Shown here piece by piece: positions 1-31,990 of a DNA stretch of 32,000 nt. Positions within the stretch are counted from its first letter, which is position 1. Each line of letters opens with the position of its first letter. The DNA lies in NCBI RefSeq assembly GCF_008189285.1, contig NZ_CP043315.1:210001-242000 (forward strand). The letters run 5' to 3'. Source of the DNA: Candidatus Saccharimonadota bacterium (GTDB lineage Bacteria > Pseudomonadota > Alphaproteobacteria > CAJXXZ01 > 1604HC). A program made the translations under genes and the position numbers. Below the pieces are notes generated by a model. The model searched no databases. It was not told where the DNA came from and saw nothing but the letters and a program-made list of their open reading frames with translations.

Positions 1-1
1 A

Positions 2-112
2 ATTGAAAGACAGCTGTCTAAAAATGATTTAACTTCACATGAAAAGCCAGAAAATACACAAAGTACTGTAAGAAATTTAACAGCAGAATTAAATGGAGCG
101 CTTAGTCCATAA
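2..112 (+). CDS. possible 3' end of a CDS entering from the left window edge
   Basis: Frame 2 is open from the window edge for 36 codons (IERQLSKNDLTSHEKPENTQSTVRNLTAELNGALSP) and ends at TAA 110-112. No recognisable motif, and it is too short to judge. Confidence 0.2.
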   Translation: MERQLSKNDLTSHEKPENTQSTVRNLTAELNGALSP

Positions 113-782
113 GTAAAAATTAATTAATTATGAAAATTTCTATTAGGAATTAGAGGATTTTTCCCAGAATTTCTTTTGTTATGCAAGTATTTTTCATAAT
201 AATAATTAATAGCATAACAAATCACTATTTTGCATAATAATACAATTTATCAATCACAATAATTAGCAATCAAATAAACAGTCTTGCAAATCTATGAAAT
301 CAATTTTATACAATAAATTAGAATTGAATTAGAATTAATTGTTCAAAGAATTTTATATAGCATACATGAGATTTATGCAATTAATTTAATTGATTTTGAG
401 CAATAAATAAGAGTCGCATTAGAAATGATTTAAGTGAATTGTGATAATTAAAAAACTAAAGTTGAATCAAAATCTATGATCTGTAATTATAGATGAAGAT
501 AATTATTCTTTTTGTTTTTCAGATTTCTATTTAGTTGTTTATAATTCTATAATTCTGCTTTATAGTTTTTAAGTTTTTTATCTCAGTTTATTTAATTTAT
601 CTTCCGCTTTTTTGAGTTTATAGATTCTTTAGCTGCTTGTAATTCTTAGCTTGAGTTTTATAGATTAAGAAAGATCAAATGCTACTATAGAAATTCCACA
701 AATTGATAATTGATTTATCTAGTATAAAATAATATGAAATTGCAGTTGAAGCAAAACCCTAAACCCAAATTATTTAACACGA

Positions 783-1958: not shown

Positions 1959-4778
1959 TTAATTTAAGAGAGAGTGAAGTGTATGAATTTTTCCTTTTAG
2001 ATTTGTAATTTGCTTTGCAAGGCTACCTCTCTTATTTTTATCTTGTTTTGAGCTGCCTTTTACATTTCTTTTTGCATCTGTAAGTTCTTCAATTTTATCA
2101 CGCATTTTTTTTATTTCTTCTTCAGCTTTTTCTTCAGTAGTTTTTTCTTCAGTAGTTTTTTCTTCAGCAGTTTTTTCTTCAGCAGTTTTTTCTTCAGCAG
2201 TTTTTTCTTCAGCAGTTTTTTCTTCAGCAGTTTTTTCTTCAGCAGCTTTTACTTCTTCAGTTTTTACTTCTTCAGTTTTTACTTCAGCAGCTTTTGGTTC
2301 TTCAACTTCTAATTTAGCTTCTGGTTGAGAAGCAGCATCTCCAGCTCCAGCTTCTGATCCTTCAGCAACTTTTTCTTCAGCAGCTTCTGGTTCTTTAGCT
2401 TCTGGTTCTTTAGCTTCTGGTTCTTTAGCTTCTGGTTCTTTAGCTTCTGGTTCTTTAGCTTCTGGTTCTTTAGCTTCTGGTTCTTTAGCTTCTGGTTCTT
2501 TAGCTTCTGGTTCTTTAGCTTCTGGTTCTTTAGCTTCTGGTTCTTTAGCTTCTGGTTCTTTAGCTTCTGGTTCTTTAGCTTCTGGTTCTTTAGCTTCTGG
2601 TTCTTTAGCTTCTGGTTCTTTAGCTTCTGGTTCTTTAGCTTCTGGTTCTTCAACTTCTAATTTAGCTTCTGGTTGAGAAGCAGCATCTCCAGCTCCAGCT
2701 TCTGATCCTTCAGCAACTTTTTCTTCAGCAACTTTTTCTTCAGCAACTTTTTCTTCAGCAACTTCTGGTTCTTTAGCTTCTGGTTCTTTAGCTTCTGGTT
2801 CTTTAGCTTCTGGTTCTTTAGCTTCTGGTTCTTTAGCTTCTGGTTCTTCAACTTCTAATTTAGCTTCTGGTTGAGAAGCAGCATCTCCAGCTCCAGCTTC
2901 TGATCCTTCAGCAACTTTTTCTTCAGCAGCTTCTGGTTCTTTAGCTTCTGGTTCTTCAACTTCTAATTTAGCTTCTGGTTGAGAAGCAGCATCTCCAGCT
3001 CCAGCTTCTGATCCTTCAGCAACTTTTTCTTCAGCAACTTTTTCTTCAGCAACTTTTTCTTCAGCAACTTCTGGTTCTTTAGCTTCTGGTTCTTTAGCTT
3101 CTGGTTCTTTAGCTTCTGGTTCTTTAGCTTCTGGTTCTTTAGCTTCTGGTTCTTTAGCTTCTGGTTCTTTAGCTTCTGGTTCTTTAGCTTCTGGTTCTTT
3201 AGCTTCTGGTTCTTTAGCTTCTGGTTCTTCAACTTCTAATTTAGCTTCTGGTTGAGAAGCAGCATCTCCAGCTCCAGCTTCTGATCCTTCAGCAACTTTT
3301 TCTTCAGCAACTTTTTCTTCAGCAACTTTTTCTTCAGCAACTTCTGGTTCTTTAGCTTCTGGTTCTTTAGCTTCTGGTTCTTTAGCTTCTGGTTCTTTAG
3401 CTTCTGGTTCTTTAGCTTCTGGTTCTTCAACTTCTAATTTAGCTTCTGGTTGAGAAGCAGCATCTCCAGCTCCAGCTTCTGATCCTTCAGCAACTTTTTC
3501 TTCAGCAGCTTCTGGTTCTTTAGCTTCTGGTTCTTCAACTTCTAATTTAGCTTCTGGTTGAGAAGCAGCATCTCCAGCTCCAGCTTCTGATCCTTCAGCA
3601 ACTTTTTCTTCAGCAACTTTTTCTTCAGCAACTTTTTCTTCAGCAACTTCTGGTTCTTTAGCTTCTGGTTCTTTAGCTTCTGGTTCTTTAGCTTCTGGTT
3701 CTTTAGCTTCTGGTTCTTTAGCTTCTGGTTCTTTAGCTTCTGGTTCTTTAGCTTCTGGTTCTTTAGCTTCTGGTTCTTTAGCTTCTGGTTCTTTAGCTTC
3801 TGGTTCTTTAGCTTCTGGTTCTTTAGCTTCTGGTTCTTTAGCTTCTGGTTCTTTAGCTTCTGGTTCTTTAGCTTCTGGTTCTTTAGCTTCTGGTTGAGAA
3901 GCAGCATCTCCAGCTCCAGCTTCTGATCCTTCAGCAGCTTTTTCTTCAGCAGCTTTTGGTTCTTTAGCTTCTGATTGAGAAGCACTAACAATAAACGGAA
4001 TTGGATCTTTATGTAATTCTCTAGATTTTTCTTTAGATGACATTGGAGTTCCTGTTTCAGATGTAACGACAGAAGAATATATACTAACTTCAGATCCATC
4101 ATTTTTTACAATGTTAATAACTGAAATGTTTCCATCAATATCTTGGTCTATTTTAATCTTTGAATCATTTTTAGATGTTCCTGTTATGATATCTGATACT
4201 ATTTTAGATATAGCAGATGCAGTTATTGTTCCTTTTTGATCAAATTTGGTAATAATTTCTTCAGCATTTTCATTTGCTTTTGAATATATGCAAATTTCAC
4301 TTTTAGCTTGTTCGGATAATTGATCCCAAGCTTTTTGATTGAACTCATAGATGTTTTGGTTTCTTCCACCAATTTTTTTAGATGTAAGTTTGATCAATTT
4401 TCTCATTGCTTCATCGCTTGATAAATCTATTGCTAATTCATTTCCTTCTTTGTCGTGAATAAAAAGAACAGACAATGCATCTTTATCATTTTTGAATTGA
4501 ATTAAAGATCCGATCAAATTGCCAATGTTGTTTGCTTTTGCATTATTCAAGCATTCTATTGCCATGTCTGAAACTTCTTTAATTCTATTTATTTCTTCAA
4601 AAGATTTTAACAAACTTTGTTGCCTGTCTTTGTTGCATAGAAATATTCCGTCAACTTTTGATGAACGAGATGATAAAAGTTTCTCGCCTTTAGATGGGGC
4701 AAGCTCCCCTTTAGCAGATGCTTTATTGCTTGCAAGTGTTGCAAGTAATAATAATAATTTTATTGATTTATTATTCAT
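1959..4778 (-). CDS. secreted, highly acidic tandem-repeat protein: N-terminal globular domain, EAKEP repeat array, EEKTA repeats and a basic coiled-coil tail
   Basis: 939-aa ORF with a Sec-type signal peptide ([22 protein letters not shown]). A non-repetitive region of about 270 aa is followed by more than 50 EAKEP pentapeptides interleaved with EV(AEEKV)3[24 protein letters not shown] linkers. Then come EEKT(A/T) repeats and a Lys/Arg-rich helical C-terminus. The frame stays open through about 1.8 kb of repeats. Confidence 0.85.
2117..2296. repeat. 15-bp in-frame tandem repeats encoding EEKT(A/T)/EVKTE pentapeptides
   Basis: Units tcttcagcagttttt, tcttcagtagttttt and acttcttcagttttt are visibly repeated. 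They lie inside CDS 1959..4778. Confidence 0.9.
2297..3977. repeat. nested higher-order tandem array built on the 15-bp unit gcttctggttcttta (EAKEP on the minus strand)
   Basis: Blocks of about 17, 5, 1, 10, 5, 1 and 16 perfect 15-bp units (in + strand order) are separated by conserved linker segments of about 75-120 bp. A 579-bp super-unit occurs twice in tandem (about 2650-3228 and 3229-3807). Confidence 0.95.
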
Positions 4779-7430: not shown

Positions 7431-7680
7431 AGTTTTGAATGTATGTGGAGCGCCTTAATTGATAAGTGCAATTTCAAATAAATCATAATAAATAGAAAGT
7501 TGTTAAATAAATTGTTAAATATATTAAAAAAGAATTTAGCAAAATTAAAGTAAAATTAAAGTAAAAAATGATAATTTTGAATTTTCTATGCAAAATTACA
7601 AAAAATTTTAAATGCTGCAGAAGGTATAATGAATTGCATGAATATATAATAATGCGTGCAAAAAATACATTAAAATTAAA

Positions 7681-7755
7681 ATTACATATAAATTAATTAC
7701 ATATAAATTAATTACATATAAATTAATTGCATATAAATTAATTGCATATAAATAA
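7681..7755. repeat. 15-bp tandem repeat x5 (attacatataaatta / attgcatataaatta) in a divergent intergenic region
   Basis: Five head-to-tail units read directly: three perfect copies, then two with an a>g change, the last ending in aataa. Located between rlmB(-) and trpS(+). Confidence 0.9.
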
Positions 7756-7863
7756 ATTCATCATTGCAAAGAAGTTATATTCATAAGAAATTGAAATTAT
7801 TTAATTTTCAAATGAATTAGCGTAAATATAGAACTTAATTTGTATAAATTGTAGAATATTTTT

Positions 7864-10072: not shown

Positions 10073-11641
10073 ATGAATAAAAGTAGTGCAATTTTAGGTA
10101 TGTTGCTTTCTTTATTTTTTAATAGCGTAAATGCTGATAAAGCAGGAATAGAGGCTTTATCTAACTATGCTAGAGATAGTCGTGGAAAAGTTTCTAATAT
10201 TGAAGCTTTCATTCTAGATGTTGAGAGTGGATTAGAATTAGTAAAAGAAAATGGTGATGTTTTTGGAATCAGTAAAGAAAATATCAAAAAATACTTTGAA
10301 TTGAAGAGCATTAATGGAGTTAGAGTTTATACATTCAAAAAAGAAAGAAATAAGCAATTTACTCTTTATGGTCTTTTGGCTGAATTGACAAAAAGTGAAT
10401 CAAAGTATTCTCAAGTTTCATTTGCTGCGGCTGCGGATACATGCAATAAAATAAAATTTGGACCATCTCTTGGATCATTTGAATCATTTGAAATTAATAT
10501 AACAGAAGCTGACATGGAATATTTTGCAGAATTGAGTTCTGAAAATAGAAAAGAAGATTTGGAAGTTCTGAAAGCTATTGCTGAAGAAGCTGAAGAAGGA
10601 ACATTAGCTCATTTCATTAAACTGTCTATTGAAGGAGAAGAAAATTTAACATCTTACTCTTTTGCTTTTGAAAATTTCAAATGCAAAGCAAATGATATTC
10701 TTGAAGAGGTTAAAAATGTTTCAAACGAATCATTAAAAGCTGAAGCTTTGAAAATTCTTGAATCTGTTAATTATCTTGGCGAAGATTCTGAAGAAGATTT
10801 GAGAATTAAAACAGAAGAAGCAAAAGATAAATTAAGCGATTCAAAGACAAGCGAAGAAATTACAAATAATGAAAAGATTTTCATTGAATTGATCAAAATA
10901 GGACAAGCTCAGGAAGCTGTAAGTAAAATTAAAGGGCTTTTTGAAGAATTCAATTATAATAATTTAGATAATTTTATTAAAAAACTTGTTGATCTTTACA
11001 AATCATGGATTTTAAATGAAGCAATTAAATCTGCACATGATATGATTGATGTAAATAGAAAAAGATTTAATGCTGAACTTTATGATTCAAAGAAATTACG
11101 TGAAAGAGTAGAGCAATTTTTAGAAGAGTCAAAAGCAATAATAGAGGCAGAAGAAAGCGCAGAAGAACATGAAGAGGTGGAAGAAGAACATGAAGAAGTA
11201 TGCATAGAGCATTTAGTTTCAGCGCTTACATTGTCAGCAAATGAAGCATATACAAGAGTAGGTGAAACACATATAGCAGCGATTTCAAGAGCAGATGAAG
11301 CACTTTTAAGAGCAGATGAAGCATATACAGCAGCAGATGAAGTGTATACAGCAGCGATTTCAAGAGCAGATGAAGTATATGAAAAAACAGATATAGTAGA
11401 ATTAGAAGCGCTTGTAAAAGCAAGTGAAGTTCAAGAAGCAGCATATGCAAAAGCGCATGAAGCATTTGTAGTAGCGCGCAATGTTTCAGAAATAATTGAA
11501 TGTTTGCGTAATTCAAATGATGGGTTGAAAGAATTACTTGAAACTAATTCTGATTTCTGCAAATTGTTGAATCCATATATAGAAAAAGCAATTGGTAACA
11601 ATGCATACAGCTTTAAGATTAATTCTTCTAGCAAGAAATAA
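10073..11641 (+). CDS. secreted acidic hypothetical protein with degenerate C-terminal ADE(A/V)YT repeats
   Basis: 522 aa with signal peptide MNKSSAILGMLLSLFFNSVNA. The body is Glu-rich and helical. The segment (a/c)agcagcgatttcaagagcagatgaag occurs twice (11273-11300 and 11348-11375). I recognise no family. Confidence 0.7.
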   Translation: MNKSSAILGMLLSLFFNSVNADKAGIEALSNYARDSRGKVSNIEAFILDVESGLELVKENGDVFGISKENIKKYFELKSINGVRVYTFKKERNKQFTLYGLLAELTKSESKYSQVSFAAAADTCNKIKFGPSLGSFESFEINITEADMEYFAELSSENRKEDLEVLKAIAEEAEEGTLAHFIKLSIEGEENLTSYSFAFENFKCKANDILEEVKNVSNESLKAEALKILESVNYLGEDSEEDLRIKTEEAKDKLSDSKTSEEITNNEKIFIELIKIGQAQEAVSKIKGLFEEFNYNNLDNFIKKLVDLYKSWILNEAIKSAHDMIDVNRKRFNAELYDSKKLRERVEQFLEESKAIIEAEESAEEHEEVEEEHEEVCIEHLVSALTLSANEAYTRVGETHIAAISRADEALLRADEAYTAADEVYTAAISRADEVYEKTDIVELEALVKASEVQEAAYAKAHEAFVVARNVSEIIECLRNSNDGLKELLETNSDFCKLLNPYIEKAIGNNAYSFKINSSSKK

Positions 11642-12447: not shown

Positions 12448-14838
12448 ATGATGAACAAGAAAGTATTGGCTTTTATTGCTGCATTTACTATTAATAAATC
12501 TGTTATAGCTCGTGATATATCTTCTTTGGATAATAGTTATCATAGCCATGCTGTTATTTGTGAAGAATCTGTGTTATCGAATGCATCTGATTGTTTGAAG
12601 AAGTGGGTGTCTGATGCAAATAAGGATTTGTATAAATTCTTAACTTATAACAATCACGTTTACACTGGAGAAAATGATGAAGGGTATAGTTTTTATAGAT
12701 TTCGATGCGATGGCAATGATTTTGATGAAGGTGTAGGGTATAAAGATGGAAAATTGATCCATTTTAAAGGCTTAAATTCAAAAACTGATTTGCATGATGT
12801 GCAAGAAGGTGAAATTCATCATGTTGCTAAGGTTGACATAAGTCAAGTTGAAACAGTTAGAGATTTACTATCTGATTCATCATTAGATTTAGCAAAGAGA
12901 GATTTTTATCTAGATATAGTTAAATTCTTTAAAATTATTCAAGCTCCAGCATCTAATCTTGTATTGATGCTAGATTCTGATTTGAGAGATTTTATGGTAG
13001 ATGAAAGCAACAAAAGTTCAGTTTTGTCAATTATTTGCAATGAGGCTCAATCAGGAAAATCATTTTATGATTCTTTATCTGACATGAAGTGCGATATTAG
13101 AAATGCAAGATTGGTAAAAGAATTTAATGCAGAGCTTGCTCCTAATATGCAAGATGAAAATATTCAAGGAATTTTCCAGAATTTGCTTGACAGTTATATT
13201 GATCCAGCAAGTAACCCTGAAGCTGTATCAAAGGTTTATGAGCATATTAATGAACTACATGCAAAACTTGATAGCCAAGAAATTTCTTTGAGTGAGTTTT
13301 TGAATCATTTTCTTAAAGATCAAAAAGGAAATGCAATTACTTTGACTTCTGTAAAATATGCAATCAGTTTAATGAAAGTTGTTTTGAGCAAGCGTGATTG
13401 TTTAATTAATCCAAGAATGGATTCATTTGATGAAATTAAAATGATTGCTGATCGCATATCTGATGATATTTTAGGTGAATTTGAAAGTGAGTATTTATCT
13501 GAGATTGTTATTCAATTTGGAAAATTTGTCAAAATATCTGATCATTTCTTTATGCAAGATATTGTAAAGTTTATGATGCCAATTTGGTTTAGAAGCAGCG
13601 ATTTTGACAATCTTGCTGATTACAATTATAGCAAATATACAGAATTATTTGAACTTGGACAAGAAGGATCAGCTGCTGCCATTCATCATTTTGTAAGAAG
13701 ATATGTAGGAGAAACAGGAAATACTGATATAAGCGAATTATATAATAATGTATTGATTAAGATTTATCCTAATCTTGCAAATGAAATTCAATTAATGCAT
13801 GATGTCATGTCTGGTGCATTGAATGGATATTTGGATAATCAAAGAATTGTGAATGAGAATCCTGATATGCTTTATCGTGATTTGTATGAAGGTGATAAAG
13901 ATGCATATCATCAGCATTTAGTTGATGATTTTGCTCAGCCAATTGTTAATTTATTTAACGCTGAGCAAATTACTGATTTATCAGATAAATCTTTGGCTTA
14001 TGCTCAAGTGATAAATTTTGCAATTGCTTTTGCAAGTGATCCAGTGGAATTCCTTGCTCATATGCCGTTTTCTCCTATTAGTGATGATAAGGTGCTAGAT
14101 TATTCTGCTATGACTCATAATGAGTTGGGGTATGAAACAATGATCGCATTTAACTCTACTGTGATGCCAAGTGGCGCATTTGGATATAAAGTGGACAATA
14201 GTATAGATAGCTTTAAATATGGATTTAATAATATTCTTGATAAATTGTATGAGTTAGAACAAGCAGAAGGAGGTTTTTTACAATTTGTAGAAAATACTGT
14301 TCAAGAAACAAGAAGTAAATATAAAGATATTCTTATGCATATAAATGAATCAGGTGAATACATGAATGCTGGGAAGGTTGACATTGCAAGAAAAGCAATA
14401 ATTAATTTTATACGCAATGCAGATTCTCTTTATGTGGAATATGATGATGATATTATATTTAATCAAGAAATAGATATGATGCATGTGATTTATTATATTG
14501 AAAGTGCATTGCGAGGAAATTTTAATAAAGATTCTTTTAGTTCAATATTAAGAGAGCTAAATTGTCATGCATACAATAGATTGCTATATGGAAAATCAGG
14601 AAATGTTTTAATATATTTATGTTCTATACTTGATATTGATGTTGCTTATACAATAGGAAATGAAAGAGAAGAGTTTAAATATTCAGAGCATATTTCTTTT
14701 AAATTGAATGTTGATAAAATGTTTGCAGAATTAAAAGAAAAATTAGAAAAGAAAAACATTGATGTTGATGCAATTTTAGATGAAATGCATGAGTTAATTA
14801 TGAGTACTAATAGCCCAGAATCTGAATTAGACGAATAA
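12448..14838 (+). CDS. giant secreted protein family, paralogue A (shortest, no repeat cassette)
   Basis: 796 aa with signal peptide MNKKVLAFIAAFTINKSVIA. The N-module shared with ORFs 19783..22692 and 24937..28515 includes ASDCLKKW, HVYTG, DLHDVQEGEIHHVAK, DIVKFFK and ICNEAQSGKSFYDSLSDM. The shared C-module includes MMPIWF and INFAIAFASDP. Confidence 0.85.
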   Translation: MMNKKVLAFIAAFTINKSVIARDISSLDNSYHSHAVICEESVLSNASDCLKKWVSDANKDLYKFLTYNNHVYTGENDEGYSFYRFRCDGNDFDEGVGYKDGKLIHFKGLNSKTDLHDVQEGEIHHVAKVDISQVETVRDLLSDSSLDLAKRDFYLDIVKFFKIIQAPASNLVLMLDSDLRDFMVDESNKSSVLSIICNEAQSGKSFYDSLSDMKCDIRNARLVKEFNAELAPNMQDENIQGIFQNLLDSYIDPASNPEAVSKVYEHINELHAKLDSQEISLSEFLNHFLKDQKGNAITLTSVKYAISLMKVVLSKRDCLINPRMDSFDEIKMIADRISDDILGEFESEYLSEIVIQFGKFVKISDHFFMQDIVKFMMPIWFRSSDFDNLADYNYSKYTELFELGQEGSAAAIHHFVRRYVGETGNTDISELYNNVLIKIYPNLANEIQLMHDVMSGALNGYLDNQRIVNENPDMLYRDLYEGDKDAYHQHLVDDFAQPIVNLFNAEQITDLSDKSLAYAQVINFAIAFASDPVEFLAHMPFSPISDDKVLDYSAMTHNELGYETMIAFNSTVMPSGAFGYKVDNSIDSFKYGFNNILDKLYELEQAEGGFLQFVENTVQETRSKYKDILMHINESGEYMNAGKVDIARKAIINFIRNADSLYVEYDDDIIFNQEIDMMHVIYYIESALRGNFNKDSFSSILRELNCHAYNRLLYGKSGNVLIYLCSILDIDVAYTIGNEREEFKYSEHISFKLNVDKMFAELKEKLEKKNIDVDAILDEMHELIMSTNSPESELDE

Positions 14839-17505: not shown

Positions 17506-18699
17506 ATGCGATCTAAAGTATTTATTGATCGAAAAATGCATATTGATTGCTCAAAAAACGTATTTATGGTAGATTTTCTTATGTTTTGCTCTGGCCCAAC
17601 AAAAAAATACAAAGAATGGCATCAAAAATCTAAAGATAAATTACTTCAGGATTTAGGAAGATCGCATAGGTCAGAATTATGGATAAAAAGAATAAGTGAA
17701 ATATATAATTTGATTAGAGTTGCATTGAGAATTCCTGAAGATTATAAAATAGGATTTATTAATGGATCAGCAACATCTGCAGTTGATGCATTATTGTTGA
17801 ATTTGCTTGGGAATAGACCATGCAATGTGTTAAAAACAGGAGTATTTAGCAATAGATGGTCTCAAGAAATATTTAATAAAATGAAGATGCCTGGAAAAAC
17901 TATCGAATTTCAAAAAGATGCTATAAATCAAATAAATCAAATAAATCAAATAAATGCAGAATCAGACAAGCTAAATCAATGTCATGATAATAAATATTTG
18001 AATAATTATATAAATCCAAATCCAAATTGCGATTTTGTTTTCACAATGATTGAAACTACAAATGGTTTTAAATGGTTTGATGAAGAGGTTCTGAAAAAAA
18101 TTAATGGACTAAAAATATGCGATGTAACTTCTGCAGTATTTTGTGAAGAAATTGATTGGAATTTGATAGATTGTGGAGCATTTTCATTTCAAAAAGCATT
18201 AGGCGGAGAGGGAGGAATTGGATGCATTGTTGTGAATAGCAAAGCATTAGAAAATCTCAATAAAAAATTTACTGTGCCACGATTCATGGAAATTAATGAC
18301 AATATATTCGATGCAAAATTGAATAACACTCCATCTCTGATAGCATTGAATGATATAGAAATTAATTTGAATATTTTTATGGAAAAAGGAGGTCTGAGCA
18401 ATGCAATAAAGCAGTGCAAAGAAAATCAAATTAACATAATGAAGTCATTAGGTGATTTGTTTTATAAGACATCTGATGCAAATGGAATGCTGTGTGTGGA
18501 TTTTAAAAAACAATTGGGTGAAAAATCTCAATTAATTAAAATTTTGTCTAAAAAGTGTGAAGATTATGGAATATTTGATATATGTGGGCATCCAGAAGAT
18601 GATCCATGTTTTAGATTTTGGGCAGGCCCAACATTAGAGTGGTCAGAAATTCAACCATATATTAATAAATTCATTAATATAGTAGAAAATGATATTTAG
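17506..18699 (+). CDS. serC: class V aminotransferase, phosphoserine aminotransferase (SerC)-like
   Basis: FCSGPTKK, GFINGSATSAVDALLLNLL and FSFQKALGGEGGIGCIVV (Schiff-base Lys context like AGAQKN.GP.G) resemble SerC. The likely start is the internal ATG at 17566 (MVDFLMFCSGP). A 9-bp x3.6 repeat at 17923-17955 encodes INQINQINQIN. Confidence 0.6.
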   Translation: MRSKVFIDRKMHIDCSKNVFMVDFLMFCSGPTKKYKEWHQKSKDKLLQDLGRSHRSELWIKRISEIYNLIRVALRIPEDYKIGFINGSATSAVDALLLNLLGNRPCNVLKTGVFSNRWSQEIFNKMKMPGKTIEFQKDAINQINQINQINAESDKLNQCHDNKYLNNYINPNPNCDFVFTMIETTNGFKWFDEEVLKKINGLKICDVTSAVFCEEIDWNLIDCGAFSFQKALGGEGGIGCIVVNSKALENLNKKFTVPRFMEINDNIFDAKLNNTPSLIALNDIEINLNIFMEKGGLSNAIKQCKENQINIMKSLGDLFYKTSDANGMLCVDFKKQLGEKSQLIKILSKKCEDYGIFDICGHPEDDPCFRFWAGPTLEWSEIQPYINKFINIVENDI

Positions 18700-19782: not shown

Positions 19783-22692
19783 ATGAATAAGAAATTGTTA
19801 GCCTTGTTAGCTGTATTTTCTATTAACAAATCTACTTTTACTAATAATGTGTCTGATGTAAGCAATAACCATTTAAGTAAGACATTTATTTGTGATGGAG
19901 TGATCCCTGAAGATGCATCTGATTGTTTTAAATCATGGATTAGTTCAATTAATGATGGAGATCTTATAAGAAAATTAGTTCATGATAAGCATGTATATAC
20001 TGGTAAAAATGAAAAAGGAATTAAAGCATTTAGATTAAGATGCGATGATGGATTTGATGAATTGGTAGGATACAATTTTGACAAACATGAGATTGTTCGT
20101 TTTACTGGAGTAAATACAAGCGCAGACTTGCATGATGTTCAGCTAGGACAAGTTCATCAAGTTTCCAAGGTTTCTTTAGATCAAACAGAAAATATTTCAG
20201 ATTTGATAAAAAATGGATCTATTAGTGATTCATTAAAGCACAAATATGAAGAAGTGCAAAAGTTTTTTAAAGCGCTTCAATTTCCTATTTCTTATATTAT
20301 GCTAGGTAGAGATCCAAGCTTAAGTAGTTATATGCATAGTTTAAATGGAAAGAAATTTTCTATGGAAACAATTTGTGATGAAGTCAAATCTGGAAGGTCA
20401 TTTTCTGATGCTTTCCAGCATATGCATGACACAATTAAGAGCGAAAAAGATAAATCTGAATTACAAGGCAATATTTCTCAATCTGAAGGAGTTCTTAAAG
20501 CTCATCTTTCAAGTGAAAATGATGAATTGCAAGAATTTGTTGGCGAACAAACTGATGCGCTTGCAGGTCAAAATAGAGTCATTAAATCAAAAGTTGGCGA
20601 ATTGCAAGTATTCGTTGGCGAGAAAACTGATGCTCTTGCAAGTCAAAATGGAGAGATTAAAGTAAAAGTTGGCGAATTACAAGAATTAGTTGATCAGCGC
20701 ACTTTAGCTCTTGCAAATCAAAATGAAGAAATTAAAACAAAAATAGAAGATGCAATTAAAGAGGCTGAAGAATTAGCTCAAGGAGTTGAAGAATGCTGTG
20801 TTGAATTAAAAGATAAAGTAGATTTAACTAACAAGCAATTCGAAGTTATTCCTGGTGAATCGCCAGATACTGATGAAAAAACTCAAAGAGAATTGCTTCT
20901 AAAAGCTCTTGCAAACTCTGAAGAAGCAAAAAATAAATCAAGATTTGAGCATTTGACAAATACCAATGAATTAAGAGTTGGGGTGAGCAATGGTTCAATG
21001 TTTGCTTATCATTTTGTGTATCACTTTATTTCAGATAAGTCATCTGTTACTGATGCAGAAGCAATGGTAATTATTAAAGAATTGTTTGCAAATATGAAAT
21101 GTGGTTTTGGAAACCCATCAAATGACTTGTTAGAAGCAGTTAGATTAGTTGCAGAAAAAGTTGATGCAGAATCTTTTGATAGTTTTAAAGAATCTTACAA
21201 AAATATTGTGACCTTTAAAACTGGATTATATCCTTCTTCATCTTTAGAGATTACCAGCACTAACACTGCAATCAATGATTATATGAGATGGATGATGCCT
21301 ATATGGATTAAAAACACTGATGATACAGGAGGGGCGCTTGCTCAAAACGTACAAGATAATTTTGACCAAGAACTGAAAGATTTTATTGTTAGTCAATATA
21401 CTGAGACATCACATGATATGGCATACAATTTAGTTAGATGGTATGCGCATGTTGCTGAAAATACAGGAAGCGCTATAAAATGGGCTCATAATGCTATTAA
21501 AGCTATTAAAAATGTGCATATTCATTACATGTTTCCTATATTTAGTGGATATGTAGATGCAATGATAGATGAAGAAAGAAAGATAAATTCATCATATTCT
21601 TATAGCGACTTCTATAGAACAAAACAAGATAGCATTGTTCTTGATCTATATGGTATTTTAAATGCATTTGATATTGATTTAAACACAGTTAGCTTAGCAG
21701 ATAAATATAAAATTCAAGATGAAATGGTAAAAATTGCAATCACATATGCGAGCGATATTCCTAAATATTTGAGTGAATTATATAGTACAAATCCAATATA
21801 TTCACCTATCAAGAATACTAGCGATGGATATTATGTTGATAGAGGTTGGATTGATTCAAATGGTGATTTGTATGCAGTATTGCGTGCTTTTGTGATTGCG
21901 ATAAATACAGATGACATAGAAGAAATATCAAATAGTTATGAGCAAAGCATATTGTTAAGAAATATTTTGAAGCATGGATTCAATAATACAATGCCTAATG
22001 TTTATAATTTAAGCACTACAGGATCAGGAGAGGATTACTTTATTAAAGGTAGCGGGTCAACAGATGTTCCTAATGCTGAAAAATCTAAATTATGGCATTT
22101 GCTAAATAGAAGCACAGGAGACTCTCATTTTCTAAAATTTGCAGATGACAATAATGCATTTTTCAAGATAACTGATTTCTTTGCATCTATTATGAGAAAT
22201 AGCGATGTTTATGGAGATGAAGATCATGAAATACTTTCTACTATAGATGCTTGGATTGGTGAAAGTGTTGCTCAATATATGAATTCAGGAGATGAAGCAA
22301 GAAATGCAAATTATAGCGCTCACTATATGCATGCAATGAGAGCATTCTTTGAAGAATTGTGTTGCTATACATCAAAAAGACTAAAAGTAGCTAATGGGCA
22401 AGAAAATAAAATAGAACATTATGCGGCTATTTATGCTTTGTTGAATAAGTCATTGAATAATTACAAAGGCTTCACAAACAAAATGCACAATTTCTTTGAA
22501 GAAGAAAATTTGCCAGCAATGAAAGTGTTTGCATTCGAGCATTCTGTTGGTTATATTATGCATAAATGTATTAAGAAAATAATTGATTCTGGTAATGTTG
22601 GCGATGATTCTTTGATAGGCGCAGCAGCTTTGAAAGAATTTTTTGATATGTCTGCATTTTATGCAAAGACAAATTTTAATATTGAACGATAA
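19783..22692 (+). CDS. giant secreted protein family, paralogue B (25-aa x3 repeat cassette)
   Basis: 969 aa with signal peptide MNKKLLALLAVFSINKSTFT. N-module: ASDCFKSW, HVYTG, DLHDVQLGQVHQVSK, EVQKFFK, ICDEVKSGRSFSDAFQHM. C-module: MMPIWI, VKIAITYASDI. The central coiled-coil insertion is absent from paralogue A. Confidence 0.85.
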   Translation: MNKKLLALLAVFSINKSTFTNNVSDVSNNHLSKTFICDGVIPEDASDCFKSWISSINDGDLIRKLVHDKHVYTGKNEKGIKAFRLRCDDGFDELVGYNFDKHEIVRFTGVNTSADLHDVQLGQVHQVSKVSLDQTENISDLIKNGSISDSLKHKYEEVQKFFKALQFPISYIMLGRDPSLSSYMHSLNGKKFSMETICDEVKSGRSFSDAFQHMHDTIKSEKDKSELQGNISQSEGVLKAHLSSENDELQEFVGEQTDALAGQNRVIKSKVGELQVFVGEKTDALASQNGEIKVKVGELQELVDQRTLALANQNEEIKTKIEDAIKEAEELAQGVEECCVELKDKVDLTNKQFEVIPGESPDTDEKTQRELLLKALANSEEAKNKSRFEHLTNTNELRVGVSNGSMFAYHFVYHFISDKSSVTDAEAMVIIKELFANMKCGFGNPSNDLLEAVRLVAEKVDAESFDSFKESYKNIVTFKTGLYPSSSLEITSTNTAINDYMRWMMPIWIKNTDDTGGALAQNVQDNFDQELKDFIVSQYTETSHDMAYNLVRWYAHVAENTGSAIKWAHNAIKAIKNVHIHYMFPIFSGYVDAMIDEERKINSSYSYSDFYRTKQDSIVLDLYGILNAFDIDLNTVSLADKYKIQDEMVKIAITYASDIPKYLSELYSTNPIYSPIKNTSDGYYVDRGWIDSNGDLYAVLRAFVIAINTDDIEEISNSYEQSILLRNILKHGFNNTMPNVYNLSTTGSGEDYFIKGSGSTDVPNAEKSKLWHLLNRSTGDSHFLKFADDNNAFFKITDFFASIMRNSDVYGDEDHEILSTIDAWIGESVAQYMNSGDEARNANYSAHYMHAMRAFFEELCCYTSKRLKVANGQENKIEHYAAIYALLNKSLNNYKGFTNKMHNFFEEENLPAMKVFAFEHSVGYIMHKCIKKIIDSGNVGDDSLIGAAALKEFFDMSAFYAKTNFNIER
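20524..20748. repeat. 75-bp x3 diverged in-frame tandem repeat (ELQxFVGExTDALAxQNxxIKxKVG)
   Basis: Units at 20524-20598, 20599-20673 and 20674-20748 read directly. The first two are very similar and the third is more diverged. Confidence 0.85.
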
Positions 22693-24203: not shown

Positions 24204-24859
24204 ATGACACAGTGCAGTATGAATATAAGTAAATTATTGCTATCAGATATACTTATGCAATCTATGGTTACAGCACCAGATGAAGTAATGATTGATATGA
24301 TGAAGGAAGATATAGAAGTATATAAAAAAGTTAGAGAAGAGAATGATACAAATCATCAAGCTATTATATTTAATCAAAAAGCATCCTTCCATTTATGTTC
24401 TGCGCAAACAAAAAACAAGTTGCAGTAGAAACAAAAGAAAGTTTGAAGGATTTGAAAAAGCTTGATTTGCGTAATGCGTTCATCACTTCAATTGAACCAG
24501 GAATGTTTGAAGGATTATCAACTGAGCCAGGAATGTTTGAAGGATTATCAACTGAACCAGGAATGTTTGAAGGATTATCAACTGAACCAGGAATGTTTGA
24601 AGGATTAAATAGTTTGACATATATTGATCTATCAGATAATAAAATCACTTCGATTGAATTAGAAGCATTTGTGGGATTAAGCAATTTGGGCACGCTTGTT
24701 CTATCACTCAATTACTTCACTTCACTTGAACCAGAAGCATTTGCAGGATTAGGTGGTGCGCAAACAATTTATTTTCAAGATAATCCACTAGATGATAAAT
24801 CTAAAGATTGTTTAGAAAGACTAAGAAGAATATTTCCTTATATAAATACTTATTGCTAA
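24204..24859 (+). pseudogene. leucine-rich-repeat protein (LRR-1) with a frame break in an A5 run; short paralogue of ORF 30803..31990
   Basis: ORF 24204..24428 (MQSMVTAPDEVMIDMMKEDIEVYKKVREENDTNHQAIIFNQK) and ORF 24395..24859 together align co-linearly with LRR-2. In the second frame, upstream of its Met, the sequence reads SILPFMFCANKKQVAVETKE. LRR-2 has KAIALNRRHIMPFMFYISRKQVEVETKD. The frames join at aaaaa 24376-24380. Confidence 0.7.
24494..24607. repeat. 30-bp tandem repeat x3.8 (gaaccaggaatgtttgaaggattatcaact, EPGMFEGLST)
   Basis: Units at 24494-24523, 24524-24553 (one a>g change) and 24554-24583, plus a partial unit to about 24607. In-frame within LRR-1. Confidence 0.95.
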
Positions 24860-24936: not shown

Positions 24937-27900
24937 TTATATTATAGGAGCTATCCATTCGCTTATATCGATTTCATCTCTTCCATACTCTTGATTTATA
25001 AATTTTGCAAAAGATTCTAATTCTCCAAATTTTGTCAAAATTCCTAAGGAGCCGCTAATTTCTCTCTTTGGAGAAATAAACTTAAATGCCTCTCTAAGCA
25101 ATTGTTTGTCTGCTATAGAATTAATTAATCCATTAAAAGATGAAACTATATTATTTCCTACATACGATAAGTGAGGGCGTATATGATAAAAATCCAAACT
25201 TGTAATAGAGGCATTTTCAATTGCTCTATCAACTCCTTCTCGATAAAAATTCTTATAGTTTAGTAAAATATTTGACATTTCTACAATAGCGCTAGGGCTA
25301 TTTTGCAATTCTTTGCATCTATTTTTCATGTAACAAAGAATTCTCCCAAAATAACTATCCAAATAATTTGCCGCATTAGCAATTGCATCCTCATAATCAC
25401 TTGCATTGATTAATTCATTATTTAAAGCAATTGCAATTTTCTCAATAGTTCTTCTTAAAAATACATACATATACTCATTGTTTCCATTATCAGAAAATCT
25501 AGTTAAATCAGAATCACACTCGAATCTCCATAAAGTTTGCTTTAAAGCGCTGCTATGATCTTTAAAATTCCTCATTACATTTCTAGAAAATTGATCGACA
25601 GATTCAGACATTTCAATCATTTCATCTACAATATCTTTAAATCCAGGATCAATAGTATAGTAGTAATAATAGGATGAGAATTGATCCACAATAAATTGAT
25701 TAATGTTAAGCAAAATATTAGAAGTTAATTCATTAACATCATATCTATAATTAAATAAATTCAATGCAAAATGCATATTTTGTTTGTTTTGAATTGAAAT
25801 GTAGCTTTCAACACTAGTTTCTCCAGGAATATAAGATTGCGTTGCGTTGTCATATTCTACTATATTTCCACTTATAAAGAAATTTACAATTCTTTGGCGC
25901 CAAGCACTTCCATATGCAGCATATTCATTGATTCTTTGAGCAACTAACTCAGGCAAATTATTATTACTATGACCCTGAATCACCCATTTAAATGCTACAA
26001 GTCCAAGTTCTGCACTTTCATTACTAGTTGCATCGACCAATTTTTCTTCAATATAATCATCAACTTCTGATATGCCAGATAATAACGGAATAATATTGTT
26101 TAAATCATTAACATGCAATTCATCAGCAAATTTTATTATGATTGCTTTTGTAAAATCAATTTGATCAATATCAGTGTCTTTTAGAGGAATAGTGTCATGA
26201 ATTCTCATGCATCGATTTATCATATGATGCATAAGCTCCAACTTATATTTATTATCTAAATTTTCTAAATAAACATTGTTTTGTTGCAAGTTATTCAAAG
26301 GATTTTTATTGTAATTATTCCAAATATATCTATACGAATTATATATTGCATTTACAATGTATTTTGTGTTATTACTTTCAGAAAATGCAGAAACTCTAAT
26401 CAAGGCAGGGGAGGCAATTCTAAAGAAATCACGATAATTCATAGGATTATTTTTATGCCTCTCTCTTATATAATCAATATATTGTGTTGAAAAAGATGCA
26501 AAAGAATCCTTCTCAACATAACTTGCAATATGCATGATTGAATCTAAAACATCATCGTTTAATTGACTTACAGGGCATGAGTATAAATCAAGAATAACAT
26601 TAACAATGCTTAATGCATGCTCTGTATCTATTGAGGAGGATTCAAAATCTGCCAACATGCTTTTTACATACGCTGTAAATGAAAAATCAATACCATTTTT
26701 CATTGCATTTGTGATGTGAGCGTAATCAAATCTCTCTAACTTGCCTATTATTTTCCTAATATCTCCATGAGCTGTATTCAAAGCATGAAAAAAAGCATCA
26801 TCTTTTCTATTATGCGGATTAAGGTGATAATCAATTTGACGATCAATCTCTTCTGCTTCAAGCTTGATTTGATCTGCTACTTTTTTAATATGACATATTG
26901 CTTCTCCTATATTATCATTGCAATCAACTGCAAGTTGAGAGCTAATTTGTGTATTCATTCCATCTACCTTTGAGCTAACTTGCCCAACTGCAGCACTAAC
27001 GTCATCAACTTTCCCATCAATAGCACTTGCTTTCATTTCAATTCTATCAACTTTGATTTCAATTTGATCGGCTGTGTTTCCAACTGTATCTACTTTTGTA
27101 TCAACTTGCCCAACTGCAGCACTAACGTCATCAACTTTCCCATCAATAGCATTCGCTTTAGCAATTATTTGGTTAGATTTTTGTCTAATTTTCCCTACTA
27201 CAGTATCGATGCCATCTACTTTTGTATCAACTTGCCCAACTGCAGCACTAACGTCATCAACTTTCGAATCAACTTGACCAATTGCATTGTTGATACCATC
27301 TATTTTCCCATCAATTACTCTTGATTTATTTAGAAGTTTATTGGTTTTTTGCTTAACCTTGTCTATTTCTACATCAGTTTCAAGTATTTTTTCTTTAATA
27401 GCTTCAGTTTTTGTGTTTAGATTATCTAACAAAGATTGTATATCAGAATCTATTTTTCTTACTTGCCCCTTCAGATATTCAGGATCTGCATTTGAAACTT
27501 CATTCAAAATCCTATTGAAGTCTGCAGGATTATTCGCTCCAAAAAATGATATCAATCCTCTTTGAACATTGCTGAAAAATACATCGCCCGCATCCTGACC
27601 TCGCAAGATATTTAATATTGCTTCTAATATATTTTGCCCATCATCTGTATTTAGCAGCTCTTTTACTTCATTGCAACTTATTTGCAATTGCGTGTATATT
27701 TCTTCATCTTGAATAGCATCAACTCTCAATGCAATGTGTCCAAGATAGCCAAATATAGTCGTCAAATCATCTGTATGAGCGCTTCCTGCTGTATCTTTCA
27801 ATTTATTTACAGTTTGATGCAATGCAGAAATATCAGCATGAACATCCTCTTTTATTGAGTCAGCATGCTTGTTTTGATGGTACAAATCTAATATATCGCT

Positions 27901-28515
27901 TAAAGAATCATGAACAGATTTTCCAACTAATTTAGATTGAGAGCAAATCAGCTCCTTAGTGTATTGTTGATCATGATCTATTGATATATTCGGGTTAGTT
28001 AAGATTTCATATTGTAAGATCAAGCCTCTCATAACTTGAAAAAATGATACTATATCTTTCAAATAATCTTGCTCGTCTGAGTCAATATTATAATCAATTA
28101 AAACTTTTTCCATTACGCTAAGGTCAATTGCATTTTTAGCAACTGCATGAATTTCCCCATCTTGCATATCATGCAAGGCACTATGAGAATCTTTTATTTT
28201 ATACACAGCTCCTTCTAGATAATTATATGTATACATTCCTGTATATTGTTTGTTATTTTTATTTGATGAGATGAGATACCCTATAATTTCATCACTACTT
28301 GTCTCTAGATTTTCTAATCCATTATAAATAGATCCATTTTTATGCCTAATTAAATTGTGACCTAATAATCCTGTAGACCATTTTTTCACATCATCGCTTT
28401 GATTTTCTAACATTCCATCGCATGGCTTAATTTTCTGCAATATTGAATTTTCAACATTTTTAGAGTTAAGCTTTAATAAGCATAAAAGCGTTAAACAATA
28501 TAATTTTTTGTTCAT
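24937..28515 (-). CDS. giant secreted protein family, paralogue C (longest; 42-aa x3 repeat cassette in a long coiled-coil insertion)
   Basis: 1192 aa with signal peptide MNKKLYCLTLLCLLKLNS. N-module: SDDVKKW, ALHDMQDGEIHAVAK, DIVSFFQ, ICSQSKLVGKSVHDSLSDI. The C-module is co-linear with A and B (DSFASF, IIIKFADEL). The central region is rich in xVDxKVD-type repeats. Confidence 0.85.
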   Translation of the reverse strand: MNKKLYCLTLLCLLKLNSKNVENSILQKIKPCDGMLENQSDDVKKWSTGLLGHNLIRHKNGSIYNGLENLETSSDEIIGYLISSNKNNKQYTGMYTYNYLEGAVYKIKDSHSALHDMQDGEIHAVAKNAIDLSVMEKVLIDYNIDSDEQDYLKDIVSFFQVMRGLILQYEILTNPNISIDHDQQYTKELICSQSKLVGKSVHDSLSDILDLYHQNKHADSIKEDVHADISALHQTVNKLKDTAGSAHTDDLTTIFGYLGHIALRVDAIQDEEIYTQLQISCNEVKELLNTDDGQNILEAILNILRGQDAGDVFFSNVQRGLISFFGANNPADFNRILNEVSNADPEYLKGQVRKIDSDIQSLLDNLNTKTEAIKEKILETDVEIDKVKQKTNKLLNKSRVIDGKIDGINNAIGQVDSKVDDVSAAVGQVDTKVDGIDTVVGKIRQKSNQIIAKANAIDGKVDDVSAAVGQVDTKVDTVGNTADQIEIKVDRIEMKASAIDGKVDDVSAAVGQVSSKVDGMNTQISSQLAVDCNDNIGEAICHIKKVADQIKLEAEEIDRQIDYHLNPHNRKDDAFFHALNTAHGDIRKIIGKLERFDYAHITNAMKNGIDFSFTAYVKSMLADFESSSIDTEHALSIVNVILDLYSCPVSQLNDDVLDSIMHIASYVEKDSFASFSTQYIDYIRERHKNNPMNYRDFFRIASPALIRVSAFSESNNTKYIVNAIYNSYRYIWNNYNKNPLNNLQQNNVYLENLDNKYKLELMHHMINRCMRIHDTIPLKDTDIDQIDFTKAIIIKFADELHVNDLNNIIPLLSGISEVDDYIEEKLVDATSNESAELGLVAFKWVIQGHSNNNLPELVAQRINEYAAYGSAWRQRIVNFFISGNIVEYDNATQSYIPGETSVESYISIQNKQNMHFALNLFNYRYDVNELTSNILLNINQFIVDQFSSYYYYYTIDPGFKDIVDEMIEMSESVDQFSRNVMRNFKDHSSALKQTLWRFECDSDLTRFSDNGNNEYMYVFLRRTIEKIAIALNNELINASDYEDAIANAANYLDSYFGRILCYMKNRCKELQNSPSAIVEMSNILLNYKNFYREGVDRAIENASITSLDFYHIRPHLSYVGNNIVSSFNGLINSIADKQLLREAFKFISPKREISGSLGILTKFGELESFAKFINQEYGRDEIDISEWIAPII
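26977..27265. repeat. 126-bp-period in-frame repeat x3 with an identical 37-nt core
   Basis: aacttgcccaactgcagcactaacgtcatcaactttc occurs at 26977-27013, 27103-27139 and 27229-27265. On the minus strand it encodes KVDDVSAAVGQV. Confidence 0.9.
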
Positions 28516-30802: not shown

Positions 30803-31990
30803 GTGCAATCTATTGTTGCGACACCAGACCAAGCAATGCTTGATGAGATGAGAGCAGACATAGAAATATATAAAAAAGTTAGAAAAGAAAATGATGAATG
30901 TGACAAAGCTATAGCATTGAATAGAAGGCATATTATGCCATTTATGTTTTATATAAGCAGAAAACAGGTTGAAGTAGAAACAAAAGATGAAAAAGGAGCT
31001 ATAACAAAAGCTGAAGAGCATATTATAAATGCAGATAATGCAAAAGATGTTATTTCTTTCTTAACAGGAGATGGCCTTTTCTATAAAATTGATCCAAGTA
31101 ATCCAAATTATGTAGAAAACGAAAATTATAAATTAAGCTATCCATTTGATGCATTGAAATATAATCTTGCACACTATATTGATGTTAATGAATTTAGATT
31201 TGAAAACATACAAAAATGTGCAAGCAGTGGAATATTACATATTAGAGGAAAGGAGCAATACTTTTCTATGAAGTATGTCTCTATGCATGATGACGAAGTG
31301 AAAAAGAGCTTAGGGTGCTTGCAACTTCTTACTCTAAGTGGTTATATAGTTCCTTCACTTGAAAAAGGAGTATTTGAAGGATTGGATAGCTTAAATACTC
31401 TTGGGTTATCATGCAGAAGCCTGCGTTCAATTGATCTTGGAGCATTTAATGGACTAAATAATTTGAAAGAGCTTCACATGTCACGCACCTCATTATCAAG
31501 TTCATTGAAACCAGGATTATTTGCAGGATTAAGCAATTTGATAAAGCTGAATCTATCGCATAATAAATTCACTTCACTTAAACCAGGATTATTTGAAGGA
31601 TTGAGTAGTGTGATAAAACTTAATCTATCAGACAATCAAATCACTGAAATTGAACAAGGGGTATTTGAAGGATTGAGTAGTGTGACAAAACTTAATCTAT
31701 CAGGCTGTAAACTTACTTCACTTGAACCAGGAGCATTTGCAGGATTGAGTAGTGTGACAGACCTTGATCTATCAGACAATCAAATCACTGAAATTGAAAA
31801 AGGAGTATTTGAAGGATTGAGCAGTTTGAAAAGCCTTGCTCTATATGAAAATCAAATCACTGAAATTAAACCAGGAGCATTTGAAGAATTAAGTAGCTTG
31901 ACAGAGCTTAATCTATCACGCAATAAAATCAATTTTTCACCTTTAGAAGCTCTAAGAGAAAGATATCAAAATATAAAAATTGTAAGTTAG
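30803..31990 (+). CDS. leucine-rich-repeat protein (LRR-2): private N-module, a middle domain of about 110 aa, and nine 24-residue LRRs
   Basis: 395-aa ORF starting at GTG 30803 (alternative ATG at 30836). It has nine consecutive repeats of the form L..L.LS.N.IT.I..G.FEGLSS, and the 72-bp units are partly near-identical at nucleotide level. The N-module is shared with LRR-1 (24204..24859). Confidence 0.85.
   Translation: MQSIVATPDQAMLDEMRADIEIYKKVRKENDECDKAIALNRRHIMPFMFYISRKQVEVETKDEKGAITKAEEHIINADNAKDVISFLTGDGLFYKIDPSNPNYVENENYKLSYPFDALKYNLAHYIDVNEFRFENIQKCASSGILHIRGKEQYFSMKYVSMHDDEVKKSLGCLQLLTLSGYIVPSLEKGVFEGLDSLNTLGLSCRSLRSIDLGAFNGLNNLKELHMSRTSLSSSLKPGLFAGLSNLIKLNLSHNKFTSLKPGLFEGLSSVIKLNLSDNQITEIEQGVFEGLSSVTKLNLSGCKLTSLEPGAFAGLSSVTDLDLSDNQITEIEKGVFEGLSSLKSLALYENQITEIKPGAFEELSSLTELNLSRNKINFSPLEALRERYQNIKIVS

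Follow-up and report, generated by a model that had tools for sequence, protein, structure and literature searches.

On the reverse strand of the 32,000-nucleotide (nt) stretch of DNA analysed here (contig NZ_CP043315.1, positions 210,001 to 242,000; hereafter the window), beside dnaN, lies a complete coding sequence (CDS) for a protein of 939 amino acids (aa) that combines a Sec-type signal peptide with a long array of perfect EAKEP pentapeptide repeats. By composition, the mature protein comes to about 99 kDa, with an isoelectric point (pI) of about 4.5 and a net charge of about −125. In composition, charge and codon usage the CDS agrees with the other genes of the window, and across the repeats the annotated frame alone is free of stop codons. 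The repeat codons are all genome-preferred ones (GAA, GCT, AAA, CCA, GTT and GGA), which argues for native rather than foreign sequence; the local GC content of up to ~40% over the repeats, compared with 29.5% for the window overall, reflects amino acid content. The gene is real, and so is the striking repeat within it. Its product joins a kind already known from obligate intracellular bacteria, that of exported, disordered proteins with tandem repeats.

The EAKEP unit, GAAGCTAAAGAACCA, is present in 56 copies without a mismatch, and a search that tolerates one mismatch adds no further copy. By chance, 0.02 occurrences of this 15-mer would be expected, and a count of 56 was reached in none of 100 shuffles. 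From the N- to the C-terminus, the units are arranged in blocks of 1, 16, 1, 5, 10, 1, 5 and 17 copies, with proline at every fifth residue. Two kinds of linker stand between the blocks, a long one of 41 aa (123 nt, four copies) and a short one of 31 aa (93 nt, three copies), and within each kind all copies are nucleotide-identical. The first linker, which follows the solitary first unit, is a 22-aa variant. The whole core of 1,677 nt can be rebuilt exactly from four concatenated strings. At a higher level of order, a super-repeat of 579 nt is present in exact duplicate, and the longest exact direct repeat measures 741 nt at an offset of 579. Tandem Repeats Finder (TRF) reports a period-15 array at 2382–3895 with a score of 1332.

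The original prediction for this locus, made from the sequence and its open reading frames (ORFs), had listed blocks of 16, 1, 5, 10, 1, 5 and 17 copies. All of them were recovered; the solitary unit at 3957–3971 had been missed. The units had also been called nucleotide-perfect, which is borne out by the 56 identical copies and the lack of one-mismatch variants, and the 15-mer quoted at the time from the forward strand corresponds, after cyclic rotation, to the reverse complement of GAAGCTAAAGAACCA. Likewise, all units are indeed multiples of three, so that slippage would alter the length of the protein and not its frame. The proposed layout of a Sec signal, an N-terminal region, an acidic Pro/Glu/Lys stalk and a basic coiled-coil tail agrees with what was found, the tail having a pI of 9.9, a 3.5-residue periodicity and predicted helices. 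The suggestion that the array may be a variable-number tandem repeat suited to strain typing is a reasonable one.

On the C-terminal side of the EAKEP core, a second family of 15-nt units encodes E(E/V)KT(A/T/E). The E(E/V)KT(A/T) unit agrees with the AEEKV unit inside the linkers at 13 of 15 nt, and with the EAKEP unit at 8 of 15. Given this agreement, the entire repeat tract of ~1.86 kb (2114–3971), which amounts to ~0.3% of a 628-kb genome, seems to be descended from one ancestral 15-nt period. It is proposed that 15-nt slippage and unequal recombination between modules of 300–580 nt either produced the array very recently or keep it homogeneous. Slippage and unequal recombination belong to the established dynamics of tandem repeats, and the nested sequence pattern needs both slippage at the level of the unit and recombination between modules of this size. 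The coordinates of all features are collected in Table 1.

Table 1. Features of the repeat gene and its upstream gap, in window coordinates
Feature	Position	Strand	Basis
Complete CDS, 939 aa plus stop	1959–4778	−	ORF list
Sec-type signal peptide, aa 1–22 (MNNKSIK / LLLLLATLA / SNKASA), signal peptidase I site ASA|KG	4713–4778	−	translation; −3/−1 rule by inspection
Orphan N-region, aa 23–269 (~247 aa), non-repetitive, pI 5.6, Ser/Ile/Lys/Asn-rich	3972–4712	−	composition, searches
Perfect modular repeat core, aa 270–828	2295–3971	−	exact string reconstruction, segment map, TRF
Super-repeat copy 1, 579 nt: long linker, 1 unit, short linker, 5 units, long linker, 10 units	3072–3650	−	exact duplicate of 2493–3071
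Super-repeat copy 2, 579 nt, 100% identical to copy 1	2493–3071	−	exact match
Second 15-nt family, E(E/V)KT(A/T/E), aa 829–885, units ~92% identical	2124–2294	−	TRF 2114–2295, unit comparison
Basic C-terminal tail, aa 886–939 (54 aa), pI 9.9, two helices with heptad-type periodicity	1962–2123	−	charge, periodicity, AlphaFold2
Weak sigma-70-like promoter match, TTTACA-17 nt-TAACAT, in the 142-nt gap 5' of the start codon	4784–4812	−	consensus scan, 9/12 positions

The predicted signal peptide lacks a lipobox cysteine, and similar N-termini are found on other orphan proteins of the window. Upstream of the gene, the consensus scan found no more sigma-70-like sites in the region than expected from shuffles. 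The repeat core (aa 270–828) consists of 35% Glu, 22% Ala, 14% Lys and 13% Pro, has a pI of 4.25 and carries about 123 net negative charges; some 89% of the repeat region is made up of Pro, Glu, Ala/Val and Lys. The acidic stalk as a whole extends over ~615 aa, of which ~560 aa are EAKEP blocks and linkers, followed by ~57 aa of E(E/V)KT repeats. In a single-sequence AlphaFold2 model of aa 641–939, the part up to aa 837 is without secondary structure, at a predicted local distance difference test (pLDDT) score of 40–50. Helices are modelled at aa 838–904 and 911–938, with the E(E/V)KT part helical at moderate confidence (pLDDT 56–70) and pLDDT values of at least 90 across the last ~60 residues. 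Hydrophobic periodicity of 3.5 residues reaches 7–9 times the background, within this protein in the tail only. The (AEEKV)3 linkers look helix-forming by eye, but AlphaFold2 places no helix there. For the N-region, the single-sequence model (pLDDT 36) is uninformative.

Database searches agree with the earlier statement that the protein has no recognisable homology, none of the sequence, family and Protein Data Bank (PDB) searches having given a credible relative. The N-region (aa 1–270) had no match in a word-indexed collection of 5.8 billion proteins, no credible homologue in an exhaustive phmmer search of 1.84 billion representative proteins, and no match in species-representative genomes and JGI metagenomes. 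Two phmmer matches (E = 5e-7 and 8e-4) were rejected as chance; both are internally repetitive proteins, all of whose repeats align to one short stretch of the query. A look-up of the exact protein in public assemblies returned no record, and neither the N-region nor the repeat region with the tail gave anything meaningful against PDB sequences. A metagenome scan for the two-unit EAKEP DNA pattern yielded no matches, a literature search on EAKEP strings only noise, and a phage collection searched with the neighbouring genes no match.

In Pfam, NCBIfam and PHROGs, the results were limited to noise and a compositional match to the chlamydial histone-like family Hc2. The Pfam model (PF07382) scores 48.7 bits across the repeats, over its gathering cutoff of 40, and is the sole Pfam family above threshold; the NCBIfam model (NF038052) reaches only 11.5 against a cutoff of 135. 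Hc2 also has Lys/Ala-rich pentapeptide-type repeats, but it is a strongly basic cytoplasmic DNA-binding protein. With its low NCBIfam score, a pI of ~4.25 over the matched region and an export signal, the repeat protein was not assigned to this family, and the match is considered compositional. An autotransporter or outer-membrane beta-barrel was rejected as well, there being no such Pfam match and a C-terminus made of two helices with pLDDT values of at least 90.

The neighbouring DnaN is 69% identical to that of Candidatus (Ca.) Cytomitobacter primus in a protein search, whereas exact 8-mers of dnaN retrieved nothing from species-representative genomes. DnaN thus places the window in Cytomitobacter, most likely in the genome of Ca. 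C. indipagum, the symbiont of Diplonema aggregatum, or in one extremely close to it. The guess that the DNA derived from an intracellular bacterium was therefore sound. Members of Cytomitobacter live as obligate endosymbionts in the cytoplasm of diplonemid protists and are often positioned against the host mitochondrion or within it. Diplonemids themselves rank with the most abundant heterotrophic protists of the sea. Given a protist host without adaptive immunity, the role of an antigen that had been suggested for the protein is unlikely.

Cytomitobacter genomes measure ~0.62 Mb, and 22–50% of their protein-coding genes are annotated as hypothetical, with many of the products predicted to be secreted. 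The genome of Ca. C. indipagum is described in a review as one contig of 628 kbp with 29.5% GC; 106 predicted signal-peptide proteins, 276 hypothetical proteins and 16 pseudogenes are reported for it (George et al.). The secretion systems of the genus comprise Sec, a reduced type 2 secretion/type 4 pilus set (gspD, gspF, pilB, pilM and pilQ) and a modified type 6 system, while type 1 secretion genes were not found and are listed as "None" (George et al., bioRxiv 10.1101/719211). Of the Tol-Pal genes, only "tolA" is listed for Ca. C. indipagum, and it is absent from the relatives (Supplementary Table S3, bioRxiv 10.1101/719211); this entry may be a compositional mis-annotation of the 939-aa repeat protein. 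A "prominent periplasm" has been described for the D. aggregatum symbiont.

The gene order SpoU methylase, ABC transporter, X and dnaN is common to the window and Ca. C. primus, in the same orientation. In Ca. C. primus, X is a protein of 746 aa (L002:7576–9816) with a signal-peptide-like N-terminus. It is free of proline over 723 aa and shows strong heptad periodicity at approximately aa 155–600, which points to a long coiled-coil stalk. Two Ca. C. primus assemblies are identical across the 21-kb locus and are without the EAKEP repeat. The N-regions of the two slot proteins align collinearly, with a BLASTP E-value of 0.001 in a single comparison, 24% identity over 45 aa and a common IY(E/Q)xNQxxW...K(S/D)xI stretch. 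In shuffle tests, Z-scores of 3.2 (local) and 3.4 (semi-global) were obtained, with 9 and 5 of 1000 shuffles, respectively, scoring as well, and the similarity to the Ca. C. primus N-region was the best among the 12 secreted proteins compared. Neither protein retrieves the other in database searches, and the Ca. C. primus N-region used as a query returned nothing. Taken together, sequence comparison is suggestive, although not conclusive, of the Ca. C. primus protein being a divergent orthologue of the repeat protein. The coiled-coil stalk in this slot suggests that selection keeps an exported head on a long stalk rather than the sequence of the stalk.

In two more distant Cytomitobacter-like genomes (L003 and L004), the region is rearranged, and unrelated secreted proteins stand beside dnaN. 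A common N-terminal module for these proteins and the repeat protein was tried and rejected (hhalign E = 0.16, probability 0.4%). Three of the dnaN-adjacent secreted proteins, L003:7446–9764, L004:8429–9940 and L004:6406–8103, form one family of their own (BLASTP 3e-28 to 4e-11). The family has conserved G-x-G-N-L-C-S/A-F and ...H-Y/F-T/S-Y/L-L motifs, and its module occurs twice in L003_772. By eye, the motifs resemble the catalytic pair of a Cys/His protease or deubiquitinase-like enzyme; there is no Pfam match. In the window itself, the ~780 nt located 3' of dnaN (window positions 1–782) have a GC content of 19–29% and hold no ORF of at least 80 aa, no tRNA and no Rfam match. Ca. C. primus likewise has a gap of ~890 nt after dnaN.

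The closest known systems include two periplasmic proteins from the infectious form of Holospora obtusa, the 89-kDa invasion-tip protein and the 63-kDa PRP1; this bacterium belongs, like Cytomitobacter, to the family Holosporaceae. Holospora keeps lineage-specific signal-peptide proteins in a conspicuous periplasm, from which some are exposed or released to the host. However, the exhaustive phmmer search with the N-region found no credible homologue, no tandem-repeat stalk is reported for the Holospora proteins in the text consulted, and these proteins go with an infectious stage of the life cycle, which Cytomitobacter is not known to have.

A likeness to the tandem-repeat proteins (TRPs) of Ehrlichia had been proposed for the repeat protein. 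TRP32, TRP47, TRP120 and MSP1a of Ehrlichia/Anaplasma are likewise acidic, disordered and lineage-specific tandem-repeat proteins of obligate intracellular alphaproteobacteria. Their repeat number varies by strain. The TRPs have larger, Ser-rich units and are type 1 secretion substrates. In contrast, the repeat protein has a Sec signal, a 5-aa unit and no sequence similarity to TRPs, and no type 1 secretion genes were found in its genus. Thus the comparison holds as a loose analogy and fails in the secretion route and the type of unit. Membership of the TRPs themselves was rejected on account of the Sec signal and of non-repeat regions without TRP homology in the exhaustive phmmer search.

In general architecture, the collagen-like, type 2 secreted protein Lcl of Legionella pneumophila and the Xr region of Staphylococcus aureus protein A are also similar, both joining a signal and a non-repetitive domain to an in-frame array of short units. 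In both, the copy number varies, and the array doubles as a typing marker and a spacer or adhesive stalk. They differ from the repeat protein in repeat chemistry and in having defined ligand-binding domains. Nearly the same composition is seen in the PEVK segment of titin and the side-arms of neurofilament NF-M/NF-H (EAKSP/KSP), which act as extended polyelectrolyte springs or spacers. EAKEP reads like a phosphomimetic form of the EAKSP repeat of neurofilaments. The likeness is purely physical, without homology, and the titin and neurofilament segments are cytoskeletal, whereas the repeat protein is a predicted exported bacterial protein. Finally, long Pro/Glu/Lys- or Ala/Glu/Lys-rich spacers that span the periplasm are known from the EP/KP region of TonB and from domain II of TolA.

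We tentatively see in the 939-aa protein a lineage-specific and fast-evolving product, exported by Sec, with a "head plus long stalk" design and a place in the envelope or at the host interface; this is the account we lean towards, short of expecting it to hold. The signal peptide would carry the protein over the inner membrane by Sec and would be cut after ASA22, leaving a mature protein of ~99 kDa with a putative N-terminal head of ~247 aa, an acidic stalk of ~615 aa and a basic helical tail of ~55 aa. The tail probably oligomerises or bundles the molecules, or binds an anionic surface. The stalk, extended and polyanionic, would serve as a spacer or brush in the periplasm, in the envelope or on the host-facing surface of the symbiont, and its length would be set by the repeat copy number. 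The "prominent periplasm" of the D. aggregatum symbiont, the Holospora precedent and the coiled-coil protein in the corresponding slot of Ca. C. primus all fit this head-plus-stalk reading.

Several points weigh against it. Expression and localisation of the protein are predictions from its sequence, and so is variation in stalk length, no second allele having turned up in the genomes, metagenomes and assemblies searched. The treatment of the N-region as a folded head is an assumption. The similarity between this region and its Ca. C. primus counterpart is marginal and could be due to chance. Furthermore, the reduced secretin set might not export the protein past the periplasm, and the repeat is so recent that selection has had little time to test the stalk. 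Should the window belong to the published assembly of Ca. C. indipagum, perfect identity and block sizes might also partly reflect the way in which that genome was assembled, with Unicycler from 2x125-bp HiSeq and Nanopore 1D reads.

A bolder form of the head-plus-stalk idea, which we put forward as a long shot, is that the stalk would be an exported polyanionic entropic spring or brush that sets the width of the unusually prominent periplasm or the reproducible gap between the symbiont and mitochondrial membranes. Its length, and with it the spacing, would be tuned on short timescales by 15-nt slippage, and the tail would bundle or anchor it. By analogy, such a device would be the bacterial counterpart of titin PEVK or of a neurofilament side-arm. 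If this were true, the coiled-coil stalk would do the same spacing job in Ca. C. primus, and all this in an endosymbiont without most of the Tol-Pal system, for which the isolated tolA alone is listed.

The alternative that survives best is non-adaptive, runaway expansion: in a drift-dominated genome, the 15-nt unit would have grown neutrally within a weakly selected orphan gene that is maybe decaying, and the length of the stalk would have no function. We consider this unlikely. The N-region lacks a homologue in the searches, but the 2.8-kb reading frame of the gene is intact at 29.5% GC, including the non-repetitive first 270 and last 54 codons, and so are the signal peptide and the helical tail. 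The absence of substitutions in 56 units would make the array too recent for selection to act; yet 1.86 kb of repeat is carried in a genome of a mere 628 kb, and the slot in Ca. C. primus retains an intact signal-peptide protein with a long stalk. Neutral growth does fit the presence of further tandem repeats within the coding sequences of several orphan secreted proteins of the window, as well as the 276 hypothetical proteins and 16 pseudogenes of Ca. C. indipagum.

The protein might instead be a soluble host effector, exported by Sec and then by the type 2/type 4 pilus secretin or in outer-membrane vesicles, whose acidic disordered chain would bind partners in the cytosol of the host or at its mitochondrion, in function like the Ehrlichia TRPs or the periplasmic proteins that Holospora secretes. 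To us this is unlikely. The position of the symbionts, which abut or lie inside the host mitochondrion, is in keeping with an effector, and so are the richness of the genus in secretion genes and leucine-rich repeat (LRR) proteins, some of the latter encoded in the window, and the periplasmic proteins that Holospora releases to its host. Acidic tandem-repeat effectors are, moreover, common in intracellular bacteria. Nevertheless, type 1 secretion genes were not found in the genus and the type 2 set is very incomplete, the sequence contains no recognisable host-targeting or interaction motif, and the basic heptad tail is more suggestive of anchoring or oligomerisation.

It is improbable that the assembly mis-states the array, in the sense that the array exists but the block sizes, the 579-nt duplication or the perfect identity arose when a 15-nt loop was collapsed and re-expanded in hybrid assembly and short-read polishing. 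Blocks of 240–255 nt and modules of 579–741 nt exceed the short-read length, and reads that cannot be placed uniquely would polish all units to one consensus. Against this stand the long reads, whose coverage across the locus sufficed for a closed genome, the reading frame kept over 1.86 kb, and the fact that perfect arrays are normal in young tandem repeats.

Least credible of all is a TolA- or TonB-type energy transducer spanning the periplasm, a likeness to TonB-like EP/KP spacers having been raised early on: the composition does resemble TolA domain II and the TonB EP/KP spacer, and an isolated "tolA" entry exists for Ca. C. indipagum, which may refer to this gene, but the hydrophobic stretch of ~10 residues (core LLLLLATLA) followed by ASA reads as a cleavable signal and is too short for an anchor, which in TolA has ~20 hydrophobic residues and a conserved Ser/His motif, a non-repetitive region of 247 aa that both TolA and TonB lack stands between signal and stalk, the C-terminal part is two helices in 54 aa instead of a TolA/TonB domain of ~90–120 aa, TolA, TonB_C and TonB_2 are missing from the Pfam matches up to E = 0.01 and from the NCBIfam matches up to E = 1, and the partner genes tolQ, tolR, tolB, pal and exbBD are neither nearby in the 32-kb window nor listed for the genome.

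Repeats and predicted secreted proteins are also found elsewhere in the window. Three paralogues of 796, 969 and 1192 aa, with signal-peptide-like N-termini, are encoded at 12448–14838 (+), 19783–22692 (+) and 24937–28515 (−). They have an N-terminal region of ~230 aa in common (BLASTP 1.7e-54 and 2e-11), no Pfam domain beyond coiled-coil noise, and internal coding repeats of 75 and 126 nt; the group looks like an expanded lineage-specific secreted family. An orphan acidic protein of 522 aa at 10073–11641 (+) has a signal-peptide-like N-terminus, coding repeats of 21 and 75 nt and no Pfam match. Proteins of the LRR_8 family are encoded at 24395–24859 (+) and 30803–31990 (+). The smaller contains four near-perfect 30-nt repeats encoding EPGMFEGLST (TRF 24488–24607, 96% matches), and the larger has LRR repeats of 72/144 nt. 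The two fit the 22 LRR_8 proteins reported for Ca. C. indipagum (bioRxiv 10.1101/719211).

The window holds further short tandem repeats. The divergent intergenic region between the SpoU methylase gene and trpS (7431–7863, ~15% GC) holds a 15-nt tandem repeat, AATTACATATAAATT, in 5.3 copies at 7680–7758, together with shorter repeats of 11–12 nt. In an otherwise ordinary-looking ORF of 397 aa at 17506–18699 (+), a perfect 9-nt repeat, ATAAATCAA, present in 3.7 copies at approximately 17923–17955, encodes INQINQINQ; it adds to the signs of frequent short in-frame slippage in this genome.

The EAKEP array offers a clean natural case of nested tandem-repeat growth in a type of genome that is usually thought to be static. 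Even if it were merely a neutral expansion, it would still document the rapid turnover of orphan secreted genes in these symbionts. In practical terms, the array is a possible marker for the strain and population dynamics of the symbiont. With 0.3% of a reduced genome given to a homogeneous acidic stalk, and another kind of stalk in the sister species, the 939-aa protein is a candidate structural part of the envelope or of the interface between the symbiont and the mitochondrion of its host.

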